39,463 bases of DNA, taken from a virus. Taxonomy: Duplodnaviria; Heunggongvirae; Uroviricota; Caudoviricetes. The notes under the pieces are model-generated. The model searched no databases and was not told the origin of the DNA. It worked only from the letters and a program-made list of their open reading frames with translations. A program made the translations under genes and the position numbers. Below are positions 4,328-38,543 of this stretch, in pieces. The stretch is from the IMG/VR virus record IMGVR_UViG_2875722834_000003, positions 1 through 39,463 of that record. One strand, 5' to 3'. The stretch's first letter is position 1. Each line of letters opens with the position of its first letter.

Positions 4328-4989
4328 AGCGAGGCTCCTTTGCGAAGCTGGGCGGCGATATCTTCGAGAACGCCATCAGAGAATGAGCGGTCAAAATCGC
4401 CTTCCGGCGCATTAGCCATAAACTCAGTAGAGGTAATAATCATCCTGGCAATATCCGCGGCGTTCTTTGCAGTATCATCAATAAAACCAGCTTCCCAGGC
4501 AGCCAGCATTCTGTTCGCCACAAAGTAAGCTCCCTCCTTGCGTGCTTCAGTCTTCACTTCAGCCAGGAAAGCGTCGGTGGCCGGGGTTTTGTTATCTGAC
4601 TCCAGCCACTGGTTGTAGTAATAATCGAACATGCCAGTAGGATAACCACATCCGCTGTGCACGTGGTCTTTCATAGCAGAACCACACATGCAGTAGTCAT
4701 TGTCAGTATTACTAATGATGTCGATAAGTTGCTGTGTCCGTTGCTTCAACATCGCATTCTCCGCCGCCAGCGCAGAAAACTTCTCGTGCGCCAACTTAAC
4801 GGCTGCATCTGCCTGCTTAATTGACTCAATCGCTTTCTGGTGGTCTTCGTACAGAGCCGAAATCTTGGCCTCCGCTTCAGCAAATTTACGCACCAGATAT
4901 TCAGCGTTTGTTTCGTTAACCTTTAAATCACATGGGATGCATTTACCTTTCAGAAAACCATCCATCTCAATTAGTGACATTTGTTTCAT
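4324..4989 (-). CDS. Ead/Ea22-like early protein (coiled-coil N-half, Cys/His-rich C-half)
   Basis: ORF track 4324..5007; I prefer the internal ATG at 4987-4989 (MKQMSLIEM..., 221 aa) because it has a GGAG-rich leader and overlaps the stop of an upstream small ORF. Family assignment is recalled, not searched. Confidence 0.5.
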
Positions 4990-31871: not shown

Positions 31872-33868
31872 TGGCTAAAGCATGGAAAGATGTTATCGCC
31901 TCTCCACAGTATCAGGCGTTAGCACCAGAACAAAAAGCGCAGGCTCAGGAGCAATACTTCAATGAAGTCGTGGCCCCGCAAGCCGGAGAAAATGCAGAGC
32001 AGGCCAAACAAGCTTTCTATGCTGCCTATCCATTGCCATCTGTGCAGCCAGTGGAGACACAGCAACCAGTATCACAGCAACAACCACAGCAAAGTGGATT
32101 TATGTCTGATCTTGGTGAAGCCGTGAAAGAAACTGGTCGCGGACTGGTGCAGGCTGGCGTGAACGTGGCAAACATACCTGCATCAGTTGCCGATGCTGTA
32201 ACAAGCGCGGCGGCTTGGGCCGGAGGTAAACTCGGTATTGGCGATGGAACATATCAACCAGCGCCACGAGTAACAACGCAGGGATTAGAGCATGACTTTG
32301 GCCTTCAGCAAGGCGCGCTGACTCCACAAACTACAGAGGGCAGGGTATTTGCTGAGGCATTGCCTTACCTCACTCCTGCTGGCATTGAGAGAGCGGCAAC
32401 ACAGGCACCAACACTTGCTGGTCGAATTGCTCAGGGGGCAACTCGACTTCTCTCAGAAAACGCAGTTGGATCACTTGCTGCAAACAGTATGAAAGATGAT
32501 GCGGAAGCACTCGCTACCGATTTAGGTGTTGGCGTTCTGGCAGGCGGCGCTATTAACGCTGCTGGACGTGGTTTAGGTGCTGCTTATCGTGGCGTTCGCG
32601 GTGCTATTGCGCCAGAAGCGCAGCAAGCTATCAGATTTGCAGAGCGTGAAGGAGTTCCTCTGCACACCACAGACCTGTTACAACCCACTTCCCGCGTCGG
32701 AAAAATGGCGCAGACTACAGCAGAAAATATCCCTCTGGCTGGCACAAGCGGAATGAGAGCAACGCAACAGGAAGCGAGAAGCCAGTTGGTGCAGAGATTT
32801 GCCGATAAATTCGGTGAGTATGATCCAGCGGTTGTTATTGACAGCCTTAAAGCGAAAACATCAGGAATTCGTCGTGCCGCCGGTAATCGACTGGAGCAGG
32901 TTCAGAATGCTATGGCTGGAGTAAACATTCAGCCTGCGCGAGCAATTCAGCAGATTGATACAGAAATATCTAACCTGCAGAAGCTTGGTAAGGTCGCCGA
33001 TAACGAGACTATTTCAAAACTTCAGTCCTATCGTGATGAGCTTGTTCGCAATGCTGGTCCTGATGGTCCGGTAAATCTGGATTTGAAGCAATTAAGCGAT
33101 CTGCGCAGCCAGTTCAGAATGGACGTGAAGGGTGAACGACCAGTGTTACCAAACCGTTCCGATGCTGCCATTCAGCGCGTTTACAAGGCGATGACAGACG
33201 ATATCAATGGTGCCATTGGTCAGAATCTTGGCAACGATACTCTCCGTAAATATCAGCAGGCCAATGCCGTATACGCTGACGAAGCGGCGAAACTAAAGAA
33301 TACCAGGCTGAAGAATGTTCTCATGAAAGGCGACCTGACGCCGGAAGTTGTCAACAACATGCTATTCAGCAAGAACAAATCGGAAATTAAGACGCTGTAT
33401 AACTCAGTTGGTCGTGTTGGCAGGGCGCAAATGCGCAATGGCATCATTGGAAAGGCGATGGAGAAATCTGGCGGATCCCCTGACCAGTTCCTTCGGCAGC
33501 TTAACATCCTGCAAAACCAGACTGGCATCACATTTAAAGGTCAGGAAGCCGCTTATCTGAAAGGATTGAAAAACTACCTGCAATCCACGCAGCAGGCTGC
33601 AAAAGCGGCAGTAACAACACCAACAGGGCAGCAAACCATCCCGTTCATTATCGGGTATGGGACGGCAATGAACCCGGCGACAACTGGCGCAGCGGTAAGC
33701 TACGGACTTCTTACTCGCGCCTATGAGAGCGAGCCATTCAGAAATGCAATGCTCCGAATGGCAAACACACCACGCGGATCAACAGCGTTTGAGAAAGCCA
33801 TGCAGCAGGCGCAAAAGGCCATTAACGCCCTGACTCAGGGTGCCAAGTCTGATGCGTTGTCAGAATAG
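31871..33868 (+). CDS. Ejection protein (P22 gp16 type)
   Basis: 665 aa, at the gp16 position; last gene of the rightward morphogenesis operon. Confidence 0.7.
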   Translation: MAKAWKDVIASPQYQALAPEQKAQAQEQYFNEVVAPQAGENAEQAKQAFYAAYPLPSVQPVETQQPVSQQQPQQSGFMSDLGEAVKETGRGLVQAGVNVANIPASVADAVTSAAAWAGGKLGIGDGTYQPAPRVTTQGLEHDFGLQQGALTPQTTEGRVFAEALPYLTPAGIERAATQAPTLAGRIAQGATRLLSENAVGSLAANSMKDDAEALATDLGVGVLAGGAINAAGRGLGAAYRGVRGAIAPEAQQAIRFAEREGVPLHTTDLLQPTSRVGKMAQTTAENIPLAGTSGMRATQQEARSQLVQRFADKFGEYDPAVVIDSLKAKTSGIRRAAGNRLEQVQNAMAGVNIQPARAIQQIDTEISNLQKLGKVADNETISKLQSYRDELVRNAGPDGPVNLDLKQLSDLRSQFRMDVKGERPVLPNRSDAAIQRVYKAMTDDINGAIGQNLGNDTLRKYQQANAVYADEAAKLKNTRLKNVLMKGDLTPEVVNNMLFSKNKSEIKTLYNSVGRVGRAQMRNGIIGKAMEKSGGSPDQFLRQLNILQNQTGITFKGQEAAYLKGLKNYLQSTQQAAKAAVTTPTGQQTIPFIIGYGTAMNPATTGAAVSYGLLTRAYESEPFRNAMLRMANTPRGSTAFEKAMQQAQKAINALTQGAKSDALSE

Positions 33869-33957
33869 CTTCGCAAACACCAGGAACGTGCAAAAACCAA
33901 ATATGTAGAACGCAATATTCATCATATCTCTTTGCATAAATCCTCCGTAATGGATGG

Positions 33958-34218
33958 TTAGTTGCTGTCTTTTTTATATAGCTCCTTTAGCGTGTCAAAG
34001 ACAATTTTCTTAACCATATCAGATTGTTGTTCTGCCATACGCTCTGCATCGTCAATGTAAACTGGTGCAGAGCTTTGTTTAGCCAATGATTCTTCAATCG
34101 CTGCAATTATCTCTGAGTTCAGCGACCTGTTATTCATCTTCGCGCGCTGTTTAATTTTCGCGTGGAGTTCATGCGGAAGTCTCAAGTGAAACTGCGCCTC
34201 GTCGTATTTGCTGTACAT
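33958..34218 (-). CDS. mnt: Mnt-like ribbon-helix-helix repressor
   Basis: ORF track 33958..34251; ATG 34216-34218 gives 86 aa MYSKYDEAQFHLRLPHELHAKIKQRAKMNNRSLNSEI...DDAERMAEQQSDMVKKIVFDTLKELYKK, aligning with recalled P22 Mnt (HFNFRMPMEV...NDAERLADEQSELVKKMVFDTLKDLYKK). Confidence 0.8.
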   Translation of the reverse strand: MYSKYDEAQFHLRLPHELHAKIKQRAKMNNRSLNSEIIAAIEESLAKQSSAPVYIDDAERMAEQQSDMVKKIVFDTLKELYKKDSN

Positions 34219-34291
34219 CCTTGATGCCTCACCAGTTGGGTGGAATGGCATCGTAACCTACTGGATAAATACTCAATAGTACCATTTCGGT

Positions 34292-34314
34292 ATGCAATCA
34301 CATCATGATTGCAT
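34292..34314. promoter_or_regulatory. Perfect 9-bp inverted repeat (ATGCAATCA-catca-TGATTGCAT), candidate RHH operator
   Basis: Read directly; lies in the 131-bp gap between mnt and the HNH gene. Confidence 0.5.
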
Positions 34315-34349
34315 CATATCATTCGTCTGGAGCAATGAAATGTCAGATA

Positions 34350-34850
34350 TCACCTACTCAACAGATGGTCAGCAACCATGTTTGCTGCCTTATAAGCTAT
34401 AGCAGCTTCATCAATGGTGTTGAATCTCCCAAGGGTTATGTTTTTACCTGAGACATTTATCTGAGCTTGCCATTGATTTCTGGCTTGACAGAAAGTTACC
34501 CCCTTGATTCCAGCATTGCTATTTCGAGGTCCGACATTTAATGCATTTACGACTCTGCTGACATCCCTAAGGTTTGAGATTGCGTTATTTCTTCTGTTTC
34601 TATCAATGTGGTCAATCTCTTGTTTTGGCCATTCGCCATATACATACAGCCAGGCAAGTCTATGTGCAAAATATCTTACGCCATCAATATTAATTGCGTT
34701 ATATCCATAAGAAATTGTGCCAGCAACTTTCCCAACAGCACCTCTGGCGCTTAATTTCTTTTTCCAAGTGAAAATTCCTGTTTCTTTATTGTAATCGAGA
34801 ACCTCCATAAGGCGCTCCCGAGTTACTACCTCGTGACGTCTCTTACTCAT
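34350..34850 (-). CDS. HNH endonuclease with AP2-type DNA-binding domain (homing-endonuclease-like)
   Basis: ORF track 34350..34892 begins at TTG; ATG 34848-34850 with GGAG 7 nt upstream gives 166 aa; motifs [13 protein letters not shown]...[18 protein letters not shown] (HNH) and C-terminal [15 protein letters not shown]...[17 protein letters not shown] (AP2-like); about 37 % GC. Confidence 0.75.
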
Positions 34851-34872
34851 TATTTTCTCCGGAATGTTTATT

Positions 34873-37020
34873 ATGCCAGAACAATTATACAACGTTGTTG
34901 TTTCACAACCAAGTCAGTTATTTACTTTAGCTCGCTCGTTTAAAGCAAATGCCAATGGCAAAATTTATATCGGTAAAATTGACACTGACCCTGTAAATCC
35001 TGAAAACCAGATTCAGGTTTATGTGGAGAACGAAGACGGCTCTCACGTTCCTGTATCCCAGCCAATCATCATTAACGCCGCTGGTTATCCGGTATATAAC
35101 GGACAGATTGCCAAATTCGTTACCGTGCAAGGCCATTCTATGGCTGTTTATGATGCATATGGTGCTCAACAGTTCTATTTTCCTAATGTGCTTAAGTATG
35201 ACCCTGACCAGTTCAGGGCAATTATAGAGTCACCAGAAGGTGCTGGACACGTAGGATATCAGTATCGCAGGAATACAGGTGCGACCATGAGAATGGTAAG
35301 CGATGTGCTGGATGAGCGTGTCAGCCTTTGGGATTTTCACTGCGATTCATCAGGTAACGTAATTCAGCCCGGGCCAACTGTGGATAGTCGGCAGTACATT
35401 CAAAAGGCTATTGACGCGATATACGAAGCTGGCGGTGGAACACTAATTATCCCAACGGGAACATGGTATCTAAACTCGTATGGTGTTCCAGATAAAATTT
35501 CTAACTATGGTGGAGTAATCCACTGGCGCTCTCGTGTCAATATTCACTTTGAAGCCGGTTCTACGCTAAAGCTGACAAACTACTTCAATGAACGCGGCTA
35601 TTGCGTTATCTGTGGTTTTGACGGTAATGACCCCGCAACGTCTGGCGATTTGCGCGATGCAATGATTACGGGTAATGGAACCATTCACTGCGGGGACAAT
35701 ATACAGGCGGTGGGAGGCTCGCTAGCATATGCGATAGGCACTGGGAGATCATACAACGTAAGCGTAAGGGATATACACATTACTGGTGGGGACCTGACTT
35801 GGGCCGTGACACTTGGATGGAATGGTTATGGCAATAATACTGTTGTAGATGGGGTCACTGTTACTGAGGTTAAGAAGACTGAGGTTGCCCGTAACGTTGA
35901 CCAGTCCCTCTTCTATGTGGGGTGTCAGTTCTCTGGTATACAGAACTGCTATATGAAACCTTCTGAATCAGGGTTGGCCGCAAAAATATCAGCAGCAGTG
36001 GAACTTCACCAGTCTGGCACTTTTTGCCTGAACAACCAGATGTATGGATTCATGCGTGGTGTTTATGTTGTTTTGCACGGACGTGAAACGGCAGGCAGCG
36101 GTCTATTCATGAACAATATTCGTGTATCTGGTAACACTGCGTACATTAATGGTCAGTTTGTGACTGTAGGTGCGGATAGTATAGATTTTGATACTCATGT
36201 TTCTGATGTAATTATATCCGATAACATTTGTACCATTATGAACCCTGTAGACTCTGCTCCATTGGTTAGATGCTTTATATCATCTGACTTGTTTGTAGAG
36301 GCCCCGCCGGATAATGAAACTGCGCGCGTACTGGTTGATGGGAATATCTTCTTAGCGCCAACAACTACCCCAGACAGTTTATTTTTCTTTTACAGAGTAA
36401 GCAGCCGTGGGTTTTACTTTAGCAACAACATGTGTGATTGCCGTCGTATAATTTCTGGGGATGGGGCCGGCACTGGTATTGTAGAACTACGCGATATAAT
36501 CTGGGACGCATCCAATAAGATTGGGCCTACTTGGATAGGTCAACGTGGCGGTAATGCGAACATGTTTGAGTTTTACGTCGCCAATATTTTACGCTGTAAA
36601 TTTGAAATATCTATGCCATATGTGGACACTAGCATGGCTAGTATTTTCTACGCGCCAGATACGGCCAATATAACGTTTACAGTAGTCAAAGTTGATCCAG
36701 AAAATATACCATCTTCTGTAACTGCAGTTAGCATCTCAGAGGCTAACAAAAACCGGGGAACAAATTACTTTGAGTTCCCGGAAACTATATCCTTCTCATC
36801 TTTCAACACCGCGGGAGCAGTATTTTGCTACAGCACATCAACTAACTATGCCTGGTGTGGAAGTGCAACGGCATTGTCAAAGTCAGGAGTTTCTGGGCTG
36901 GTAACTCCTGGTGAATATGGTGTCAAAGATAACGGTCAGCTTGGTGGGGTAGGATATAATGATACAGGCGCAGCCAGGAACTGGAGCCAGCGTGTTTTAT
37001 TAAAAAGCGCAATAGAATAA
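34873..37020 (+). CDS. Tailspike protein (P22-type head-binding domain plus beta-helix receptor-binding/depolymerase domain)
   Basis: ORF track 34864..37020; ATG 34873 chosen by alignment to the P22 tailspike N-terminus (NVVVS..., [33 protein letters not shown]); the remaining about 600 aa differ from P22. Confidence 0.85.
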
Positions 37021-37055: not shown

Positions 37056-38543
37056 TTATTTTTTGTATACCAGTATTGTCATATCTCCCTTATTTAAAAC
37101 TTTTTCAGGCTTCCCATTTTTAGATGAAATGGCGTTGATACACGACTGTATGTCTCCGCACTTTTCATGCCCATCAATAGCGATAAAGTATTTTCCATTT
37201 GATGGCATTGCTTCTTTACTGTACCAACTTCTCATGGTTTGATATCGAGGTGAGTTAAAATCAATAGACCCATTTTCAGAAATATCTACAGGTGCGATAA
37301 CTACCTCCCCATTGGAAGCCCAGAATGTAGTTAGGCTTTTATTCCAGTAGTCACCATAACCATAACTCAAATTATTATCTAGTAAAAACGCAGAATAATC
37401 CTTTATCTCCCGTTCAGAATCTTCGTAAGTTTTATTTCCAAAGTTAAAGGTTATAGCGCTCGACAGTACAAATAAAATGCAAATGGCATATGCTAGCCAT
37501 TTTGTCATTCTGCTATGAGCAACTGAATATACTATGAACACAAAAGGTGCAATATTCACAAAAAAGCGAGGTATAGGCTGGCTTGGGTCTGGATTGCTTA
37601 CTGTATAAGCTGAGATAATTCCAGCGGCGGAAAGTAGGGATAGCATAAAAAAATAACTAGAACTATCTTTCCTCAGAATCCCTGTTATGCATACATAACA
37701 AAATAACCCCCCCACAAGAATAAATGAGGCTATATATAGGGAGTGCTGCCTGAGGAAGAAAATGTTAAACATTTCACCAACCGTGAGAATCAGTTGATGT
37801 GCGTTCCCCTGCATTGTAACAAAATCAACAATATTAAAAGGTTGAGAGTCGATTCCCATTAATTTTGGTATTGTATGATTCAGAGCAATACCATAAAAAA
37901 TAGCAAGGAGAATGAAATTTACTAATTTTGTTTCTTTTCTGATGACAAAAATGAGTTCAGTAATCAGAATTGGAAGGAGATAAGTAGGCGCAGCCCACAT
38001 ATCTGAGGAACAAACTAATAACCCAAAAATGCCAACTATGGCATATGATAAAAGCCCTTGATCTCTATGTGCTTTCATTGCCATAAGGCATGTTAGCATT
38101 CCAAAAGCAACAGTAGAGTAGTGAGCAAATGGATGCTGAACAAATCCATCTGTCCAATATATGTGCGGCAAAGCAGCAAGAGGCACTGCGCAAACTAGTA
38201 ATGAACTTCGCTTGTTTAATTTCTTTGATATTGTAGATGCGATAATTATGACGCTGAATGCAAAAAAAGCAGATCCAAATATCAGCATTGGAGCGCCATA
38301 ACTTCCTAATATCAAATAAAACAGAAAGTATACAGGGTACAATGTAAAGTACCAGTTATCCGGTGTCGGGTTCCAATCAGTAAGAGACTTGAAACCGTGT
38401 TCCTTAAACTCAAGCCATACAACAGGACCATTTACTCCATCAGCATCTATTCTGAAGTATATATAAGAAAGATAAGAGATAGATATTGCGCATAAGAGCA
38501 ATATTACAATCTCTATTGATTTTTTATTTATTAGGTGTTTCAT
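37056..38543 (-). CDS. gtrC: GtrC-like serotype-specific O-antigen glucosyltransferase (polytopic membrane protein)
   Basis: 495 aa, multiple hydrophobic segments plus a C-terminal soluble domain; directly downstream of gtrB with ATGA overlap; about 27-33 % GC in sampled lines. Confidence 0.6.

Follow-up and report, generated by a model that had tools for sequence, protein, structure and literature searches.

The stretch of DNA analysed here, IMG/VR record IMGVR_UViG_2875722834_000003 (39,463 nucleotides (nt); called the window below), is of the P22-like (Lederbergvirus-type) phage or prophage kind, and its nearest relatives are the Escherichia coli phages Huey, CUS-3, Kapi1 and HK620. Back to back with its tailspike gene and on the opposite strand lies a gene for an HNH-AP2 protein (the HNH gene). 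This is probably a free-standing (intron-less) homing endonuclease gene which targets the 5′ ends of those tailspike genes that do not carry it (HNH-less alleles). The gene occupies the first codons of the tailspike gene, with the remains of an older tailspike start on its left and a second, diverged start on its right, and it is shared in nearly identical form by prophages which differ on both sides of it. It has already been annotated as "HNH endonuclease" in the Kapi1 and RefSeq records. A literature search found no paper describing such a gene where the tailspike of P22-like phages begins; the paper on Kapi1 is silent about the endonuclease, and the epsilon34 paper describes a variable 'ant moron' with no HNH gene in it.

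The HNH gene and the two tailspike starts

Comparison with HNH-less relatives, a check proposed in a first-pass annotation made from the window alone, identifies the gene as an insertion and defines its boundaries. IME10, Sf101 and the E. coli O18ac prophage 873.10, in which the tailspike gene directly follows mnt, match the window at 96–98% up to position 34354, and the match resumes at about 34919–34921. The interval between the match ends is 31–33 bp in IME10 and Sf101, about 33 bp in 873.10 and 564 bp in the window. Presence and absence alternate at one site, which is empty in these three genomes and in many E. coli prophages, and the occupied sites share one junction. The features of the region are collected in Table 1.

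Table 1. Features at the junction between mnt and the tailspike gene (window positions)
Feature	Position	Strand	Description
Ghost of the ancestral tailspike translation start	34326..34354	(+)	TCTGGAGCAATGAA-ATG-TCA-GAT-ATC-ACC; Shine-Dalgarno (SD) sequence GGAG 34329-34332; ATG 34340-34342; four more codons to 34354
HNH_3 + AP2 endonuclease gene (cleavage predicted)	34350..34850	(-)	ATG 34850-34848; stop TGA, reverse complement of 34350-34352; 166 amino acids (aa)
Spacer between the HNH and tailspike start codons	34851..34872		22 nt; CTCCGGA 34857-34863
Variant ('recoded') tailspike 5′ block	34873..34932	(+)	Travels with the HNH gene; the counterpart in HNH-less alleles encodes MSDITANVVVSMPSQLFTMARSFKAVA
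Apparently mobile cassette	34355..34957		HNH gene, spacer and first ~85 nt of the tailspike gene; near-identity island among otherwise different prophages
Tailspike gene	34873..37020	(+)	Pfam Head_binding (1e-64) and HK620_9_C (6.5e-18); HK620-type receptor-binding part
Candidate sigma-70 promoter for the HNH gene	34884..34912	(-)	-35 TTGGTT 34912-34907; 17-nt spacer; -10 TATAAT 34889-34884; inside tailspike codons 4-14; relaxed scan
mnt-like repressor gene	33958..34251	(-)	Pfam Arc and Repressor_Mnt; neighbour of the cassette, not part of it
Perfect palindrome	34292..34314		ATGCAATCA-N5-TGATTGCAT; between mnt and the ghost; repeat search

To the left of the insertion the window retains what we call the ghost. 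It is identical at 29 of 29 positions to the tailspike start in use in IME10 and Sf101, and since these nucleotides are a working ribosome site, start codon and four further codons in HNH-less genomes, the copy in the window can be recognized as a stranded one. The open reading frame (ORF) of the HNH gene runs into the ghost, which provides its stop codon; this is TGA or TAA, depending on the ghost type, and the C-terminal tails of the HNH proteins vary in step with the end of the ghost. A ghost SD sequence and ATG lie beside the HNH stop codon in all 21 close-homologue loci found in IMG/VR and GTDB. Ghosts are also present in Salmonella, Citrobacter, Mixta and Serratia lineages, where they end after codon 2 to codon 7. 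As the SD sequence of the ghost is intact, late transcripts would probably be translated there. The ghost ATG opens an ORF of 20 codons (34340-34402, plus strand), antisense to the 3′ end of the HNH gene, for which no function is suggested.

The start signals recur in diverged form on the right-hand side of the HNH gene, as …CTCCGGAATGTTTATT ATG CCA GAA CAA TTA TAC AAC GTT…. The tailspike gene has two in-frame ATG codons, at 34864 and 34873, and the first-pass annotation had accordingly placed the HNH start 13–22 bp from that of the tailspike. Both codons exist, and the second is favoured as the start, giving the 22-nt gap, because the resulting N-terminus aligns with MSDITANVVV / MTDIITNVVI and because both the Kapi1 record and PGAP (RefSeq) begin the gene there. 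The two genes do stand back to back, as had been noted, and the spacer is too small for a promoter of either. Its palindrome-like CTCCGGA serves as a two-way SD sequence: read on the minus strand it offers a GGAG 6 nt upstream of the HNH start codon, and read on the plus strand a GGA 9 nt upstream of that of the tailspike gene. Either CTCCGGA or CTCCGGG is kept in the spacers of the Salmonella, Citrobacter and Mixta lineages and of lineage L019.

The tailspike codons which follow differ from those of HNH-less alleles. Over the first ~60 nt (~75 alignment columns) the two types are only 40–70% identical, while the encoded peptide is nearly the same: many of the changes are synonymous, including both serine codons, which are exchanged between TCN and AGY. 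Among HNH-carrying alleles this variant block is 97.6–100% identical. From about nt 90 of the tailspike gene identity between HNH-carrying and HNH-less alleles returns to 90–100%, and from about nt 225 the window tailspike is ~100% identical to those of HK620 and the HNH-less E. coli prophage 873.10.

The minus-strand ORF at the locus, counted from the first TTG, spans 34350..34892. The sequence evidence indicates that the real HNH start is ATG 34850 and not this TTG: on the minus strand this ATG is preceded at a distance of 6 nt by GGAG (34857-34860, reverse complement), and the resulting N-terminus, M-x-x-R-x-H-E-V-L-T-R, is kept in homologues of 77–84% identity. This agrees with the first description of the gene as one of 166 aa, of HNH-AP2 type and on the mnt strand. 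Its described AT-richness is real and only mild, with a GC content of 0.38–0.41 (about 0.40) compared with 0.42–0.50 in its neighbours (mnt 0.42–0.44, tailspike body 0.45–0.49, gene 16 ~0.50).

The protein matches Pfam HNH_3 over residues 60–103 (59.7 bits against a cutoff of 24.8, E=2.1e-16) and PHROG 99 (7e-63), and a precomputed PF00847 match is present in many of its homologues. Residues D80, H81, D83, N85, N88, N89, N93 and N102 are invariant across 15 close homologue sequences; H81, N89, N93 and N102 are conserved at ≥90% in 86 homologues, and the catalytic residues align to the DH…N…N motif of I-HmuI. A sequence search of the PDB gave only marginal matches (the AP2 domain of WRI1, E=0.011; I-HmuI, E=0.07), so that structure prediction was needed to confirm both domains. 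In the AlphaFold model, built with the 86 homologues (pLDDT 89), the C-terminal 45 residues are predicted to form a three-stranded sheet plus helix, which Foldseek superposes on solved AP2/ERF domains at 1.3–1.4 Å. The modelled fold matches that of an I-HmuI type enzyme joined to a plant-type AP2 domain. By profile, catalytic residues and predicted fold the protein appears to be an I-HmuI-like HNH endonuclease, which supports its earlier assignment to the homing endonuclease type, and it is predicted to cleave DNA.

A near-identical cassette in changing surroundings

The HNH gene, the spacer and the 5′ end of the tailspike gene form an island of near identity. Over its 603 nt the window differs from Kapi1, AR_0058, GF66.2 and VE-T9 at 2–6 positions, compared with 49–62 mismatches to the same genomes in the next 315 nt (about 55 nt of which lie in the unrelated receptor-binding part). 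Among eight E. coli loci the seven full-length copies of the cassette (that of 30COLEC is truncated at its 3′ end) are 98.5–100% identical. In the same loci the adjoining head-binding segment (nt 86–345) is 88–93% identical in all pairs except Kapi1/Combat2C1 (96.9%), the ghosts are 63–100% identical, and further out the sequences are unrelated, as are the receptor-binding parts. The left boundary is particularly sharp. VE-T9 and Kapi1 are 100% identical over the 518 nt of HNH gene and spacer, although 6 of the 30 positions compared in their ghosts are different. When the window is compared with the four genomes above, the last mismatch on the left falls at 34351, which places the boundary between 34351 and 34355, defined to within ≤3 nt. 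Such a breakpoint at the end of a short mismatched segment is not expected from homologous crossing-over; it is expected if the recipient genome was broken there and kept its own sequence up to the break. One cassette is found with at least ten tailspike types and at least five left contexts, and from these comparisons it appears to move as a unit of ~0.6 kb between related prophages.

The left contexts also bear on the statement in the first-pass annotation that the gene lies where P22 has arc and ant, which did not hold. In IME10, Sf101 and most of 60 listed E. coli prophage rows mnt directly abuts the tailspike gene, with neither arc/ant nor the HNH gene between them. The HNH gene separates mnt from the tailspike gene in the window, VE-T9 and EC06; it follows mnt-arc-ant in Kapi1/MP1 and Combat2C1, so that Kapi1 has arc/ant as well as the HNH gene. 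In AR_0058 the order is arc-ant…mnt, HNH, tailspike, in GF66.2 the gene stands between gene 16 and the tailspike gene with no immunity I (immI) genes, and in 30COLEC beside an ASCH/integrase remnant. This last copy abuts an ASCH-domain gene and an integrase and looks like a rearranged prophage remnant. Across these contexts (mnt, ant alleles, gene 16, ASCH/integrase) the E. coli HNH genes are 98.8–100% identical at the nt level, and in IMG/VR the gene is joined to tailspikes of 449–829 aa, at least two mnt alleles and three ant alleles. Since it occurs with arc/ant, without them and without any immI gene, the presence of the HNH gene does not depend on immI. Physically the gene belongs to the 5′ end of the tailspike gene, at the right edge of the 'ant moron', as the hyper-variable interval between gene 16 and the tailspike gene, the most fluid part of the late operon, has been called (PMC2629481), and that its map position is also the one of arc/ant in P22 is coincidental. 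We rejected the possibility that it substitutes for arc/ant or belongs to immI on the basis of this mixed co-occurrence and of the lack of sequence relation to immI genes.

The gene is rare: it was found in 15 of 5,426 complete E. coli genomes, always as a single copy, and in one of 50,697 phage records (Kapi1). These copies share 98.8–99.6% nt identity and the same position, a recurrence which shows that the arrangement in the window is not a chance observation. Of the 22 type-1 copies examined, 20 are intact; the decaying ones are those of EC06 (L010), with a nonsense codon at Y60 (Y60*), and of 30COLEC (L009), the truncated copy mentioned above. HNH genes at least 76% identical to that of the window (21 loci in IMG/VR and GTDB) are in every case accompanied by a divergent Head_binding ORF and a ghost, and in 16 of the 21 the tblastn match reaches tailspike residue 1, starting 22–25 nt from the HNH gene. 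Eight other inspected contigs from Salmonella, Citrobacter, Mixta and Serratia (67–84% aa identity) have the same arrangement, one of them without a ghost, and gene-call spacers on the inspected contigs measure 14–33 nt. At 35–47% identity, none of 60 loci had a head-binding gene nearby. Among GTDB species representatives there is one close locus (Escherichia sp. ESNIH1), the other eight matches being distant HNH-AP2 genes in unrelated contexts. The ratio dN/dS is ~0.07 in the sole unsaturated comparison; between genera synonymous sites are saturated and dN is ~0.12–0.14. As judged from these sequences the HNH gene is a long-lived, selected nuclease gene rather than debris, and its clade is dedicated to the tailspike 5′ end of P22-like phages. 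The first-pass annotation had allowed for the gene proving to be a common, conserved feature with ordinary intergenic spacing. The tight arrangement is indeed conserved in every close homologue in five genera, which makes it the norm across the clade and not 'ordinary spacing', while the gene itself is rare.

Two neighbouring features deserve description. The palindrome that separates mnt from the ghost probably serves as an operator for Mnt, and promoter scans find a Pmnt-like -35 box, CTGACA (34346-34341, minus strand), which is formed by the start-codon region of the ghost, so that the insertion spared the control region of mnt. In many P22-like prophages of E. coli mnt is present without arc/ant, and the target of Mnt there may be a rightward promoter feeding the tailspike gene. 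Convergent with the tailspike gene is a gene for a multi-pass membrane protein of 495 aa (37056-38543, minus strand; GC 0.36–0.39), which has no Pfam or PADLOC match and matches only two PHROGs of unknown function. From its position beside the tailspike gene, where relatives have oac, gtr or O-antigen polymerase genes, it probably serves in lysogenic conversion by modifying the O-antigen.

Expression, proposed mechanism and alternatives

The first-pass annotation had reasoned that each promoter must lie inside the other gene or that the genes depend on read-through. Both suppositions are reasonable: a candidate promoter for the HNH gene, the only plausible one, lies within tailspike codons (Table 1), and the tailspike gene of P22 is reached by PLate transcripts which continue through this region (PMC2629481). 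Given that read-through, the tailspike gene needs no promoter in the spacer and would be expressed with the late operon, by transcription passing through mnt and the antisense HNH gene. A -10-like hexamer (TATAAT, TATGAT, TATTAT or GATAAT) occurs 32–41 nt from the HNH ATG in the window and in 10 of 11 other HNH-carrying lineages, and is missing in most HNH-less alleles, Sf6 being an exception.

The mechanism we propose is drawn partly by analogy with the free-standing endonucleases of T-even phages (PMC2988022). The cassette is seated after codon 5 of the ancestral tailspike ORF and consists of the antisense HNH gene, the 22-nt spacer, a replacement tailspike ATG and ~60 nt of diverged codons. 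These codons, the variant block, probably contain the promoter of the HNH gene and, in view of their divergence, are presumed to be a form of the target that would resist cleavage. The enzyme, I-HmuI-like and maybe a nickase, would recognize the 5′ region of an HNH-less tailspike gene, …ATGTCAGATATCACC^GCAAATGTTGTGGTAAGCATGCC…, in a co-resident or superinfecting relative and cut or nick it at or near the codon 5/6 boundary. HNH-less tailspike 5′ regions are highly conserved among themselves from about nt 15 to 100. Repair would then copy the cassette from the HNH-carrying genome, the recipient sequence up to the break becoming the ghost, and the right-hand join would be made in the invariant stretch AATGGCAAAATTTATATCGGTAAAATTGACACTGACCC, around nt 60–100 of the head-binding domain.

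Another HNH_3/AP2-like gene, of 169–170 aa and 42% identical over the core, was observed at exactly the same ghost junction, …ATGTCAGATATCACC|TAC…, in at least two inspected E. coli prophages, 23CRST042 (L005 3151-3660) and M160133 (L026 3151-3660). Its spacer measures 87 bp, and the adjoining tailspike start is of HK620 type with no variant 5′ block; its presence at the same junction indicates that two endonuclease lineages exploit one site. E. coli GF66.2 (NZ_CP172145.1) and PSS-11 (NZ_AP027694.1) each have two places which match 34200-35000, one of them with the HNH gene. If the other is an HNH-less tailspike start, these strains would provide a natural test of enzyme activity in lysogens.

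Several other origins for the gene were considered and rejected. The gene is opposite in strand to the tailspike gene and has its own GGAG-N6-ATG, as befits a free-standing gene, and an intron search with Rfam (E<=10 over 33800-35300) returned only chance-level matches; a group I intron-encoded enzyme was rejected because no intron model matches, the ORF is antisense and the tailspike gene has its own SD sequence and ATG. A terminase-associated HNH protein (an HK97 gp74-like packaging factor) was rejected since the gene lies between mnt and the tailspike gene; P22-like phages package by a headful mechanism. PADLOC matched the HNH gene only to its generic 'HEase, homing endonuclease' model (2.2e-7) and gave no matches for the neighbours, and a known anti-phage defence system was rejected on this ground.

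A number of points weigh against the homing endonuclease interpretation. The Pfam AP2 match of the protein itself falls below the gathering threshold (27.6 bits against 33.3, E=3.6e-6, residues 114–156). Among the inspected close-homologue lineages one, from Serratia (L022; Serratia sp. IR-2025 contig, 4505-4560), lacks a ghost; there the HNH stop codon is followed instead by a terminator, formed of a GC-rich hairpin and a T-run. Salmonella phage SEN22 (L027 2979-3060) has a tailspike gene with the variant type of block and neither HNH gene nor ghost, preceded by only ~170 bp of AT-rich sequence of no assignment; the block is therefore a natural allele able to exist by itself, and in SEN22 it may have been left behind by an endonuclease gene since lost, or be the original home allele of the element. 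The recognition site and the cut position are read solely from the ends of the identity island and of the ghost. That the variant block holds the HNH promoter is suggested by a consensus match, which is weak evidence, and a strict promoter scan found none on the HNH strand near the gene. Finally, variation in this region of P22-like phages has been described as 'ten types in sixteen genomes' (PMC2629481); with mosaicism so high, ordinary recombination and linkage could yield part of the pattern.

The same mosaicism underlies the view that the gene is a passive passenger, inserted once long ago in one tailspike lineage and now immobile, its varied contexts being due to general recombination of 'ant moron' and receptor-binding modules. 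The fluidity of the gene 16–tailspike interval (PMC2629481), the exchange of receptor-binding domains where the head-binding domain ends, which HNH-less phages also show, and the solitary block of SEN22 all speak for it. We nevertheless consider it unlikely: the cassette has diverged by 0–1.5%, compared with 7–12% and more in the DNA touching it on both sides, its left boundary, sharp to ≤3 nt, ends a 29-nt segment with 6 differences where homologous crossing-over is not expected, and the strong purifying selection on the nuclease residues and the whole protein would be unexpected for an inert passenger.

Such selection would also be found if the gene encoded an exclusion nuclease expressed by the prophage, with which the lysogen cuts the tailspike gene of superinfecting HNH-less P22-like phages to the benefit of host and prophage. 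In keeping with this the HNH gene invariably occupies the 'lysogenic' strand, against the direction of late transcription, and shares the orientation of mnt and the conversion gene. It has its own candidate sigma-70 promoter, and a strict scan predicted no terminator between it and mnt; marker exclusion is a known effect of T4 homing endonucleases (PMC2988022). The PADLOC result gives a homing endonuclease model and nothing more specific, and rarity (15 of 5,426) together with decaying copies fits a selfish element and not a beneficial defence, so that as a sole explanation we give it little credit. By analogy exclusion would be the marker-exclusion side of homing, and both roles are compatible. 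There remains a domesticated DNA-binding regulator, in which the AP2 domain and an I-HmuI-like N-terminal sheet would bind the control region and tune tailspike or mnt expression, with nuclease activity dispensable. The gene does lie directly on the tailspike translation start, beside a presumed operator-like variant block homologous to the presumed target, and I-TevI offers the precedent of a homing endonuclease acting as autorepressor at a sequence like its homing site (PMC2988022). Against this stand the invariance of the catalytic D-H…N…N residues in 15 homologues (with H81, N93 and N102 at ≥90% in 86) and the absence of the gene from most P22-like phages, which make a regulator of this kind highly improbable.

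Relation to known systems and implications

A free-standing homing endonuclease at this position has its closest parallels in the HNH and GIY-YIG endonucleases of phages, for which intronless homing, co-conversion of flanks and promoters embedded in neighbouring genes have been described (PMC2988022). Like SegF, SegG and MobE of T-even phages (PMC2988022), the window gene is a small nuclease gene with its own ribosome site and no intron or intein. T-even genes, too, occur sporadically at one fixed locus among close relatives, have flanks which travel with them and have embedded promoters. They sit between genes, and all those of T4 except segD are co-oriented with their surroundings, whereas the HNH gene of the window lies inside the first codons of its presumed target and on the opposite strand. 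Unlike them, the window cassette replaces the ribosome site, ATG and N-terminal codons of the target and leaves a ghost. The host here is a temperate P22-like phage, and homing is read from sequence comparison.

In Aeromonas phage Aeh1 insertion of mobE splits nrdA, a case of 'genes in pieces' (PMC2988022). The likeness lies in a free-standing HNH gene inside an essential phage coding sequence with the host gene still functional; in the window, however, the tailspike gene loses five codons only, and these are replaced by ones borne on the cassette. In Aeh1 two expressed pieces of nrdA reportedly reassemble.

I-HmuI of Bacillus phage SPO1 (PDB 1U3E), a nicking enzyme, resembles the window protein in the spacing of D-H…N…N and in an N-terminal beta-sheet before the HNH core. 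It is intron-encoded and has another C-terminal DNA-binding module, whereas the window protein has AP2 and no intron, and the sequence similarity between them is weak, as the PDB search showed. Phage and cyanobacterial HNH-AP2 endonucleases have the same two-domain architecture, and the literature on them concerns domain evolution: they are said to have been proposed by Magnani et al. in 2004 as ancestors of plant AP2/ERF domains. We know of no description of a specific target or genomic niche, such as the tailspike start, for HNH-AP2 endonucleases. With the 'ant moron' the HNH gene shares a map interval, in which it adjoins mnt; it occurs, however, with any version of the moron or none, has its boundaries in the tailspike gene and shows no similarity to arc, ant or sieA. 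On the sequences compared, the features which seem unusual are the antisense position in the first codons of the presumed target, the replacement start and ghost, a clade dedicated to the tailspike gene, and a second, unrelated-looking HNH gene at the same junction.

The data correct the annotation of this locus: the tailspike genes of the window phage, Kapi1 and their relatives start with codons of a selfish element, and an orphan start lies 0.5 kb upstream. Knowledge of free-standing endonucleases comes mostly from virulent T-even phages, and the locus provides a compact and genetically accessible example of intron-less homing among temperate phages of the P22 type. The predicted target is the initial ~60 nt of tailspike genes without the insertion, with the cut close to codon 5/6. 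The occurrence of one nearly identical cassette joined to at least ten different tailspikes leads to the tentative and rather speculative suggestion that the endonuclease may drive host-range evolution, breaks made exactly at the 5′ edge of the head-binding domain each time an HNH-carrying prophage encounters an HNH-less relative stimulating the re-assortment of receptor-binding modules and immI versions while an HNH-less competitor is excluded. If such breaks do stimulate recombination, they could affect the rate at which modules of the tailspike, which sets host range, are exchanged, an exchange of relevance to phage typing, serotype-converting prophages and engineered tailspikes.

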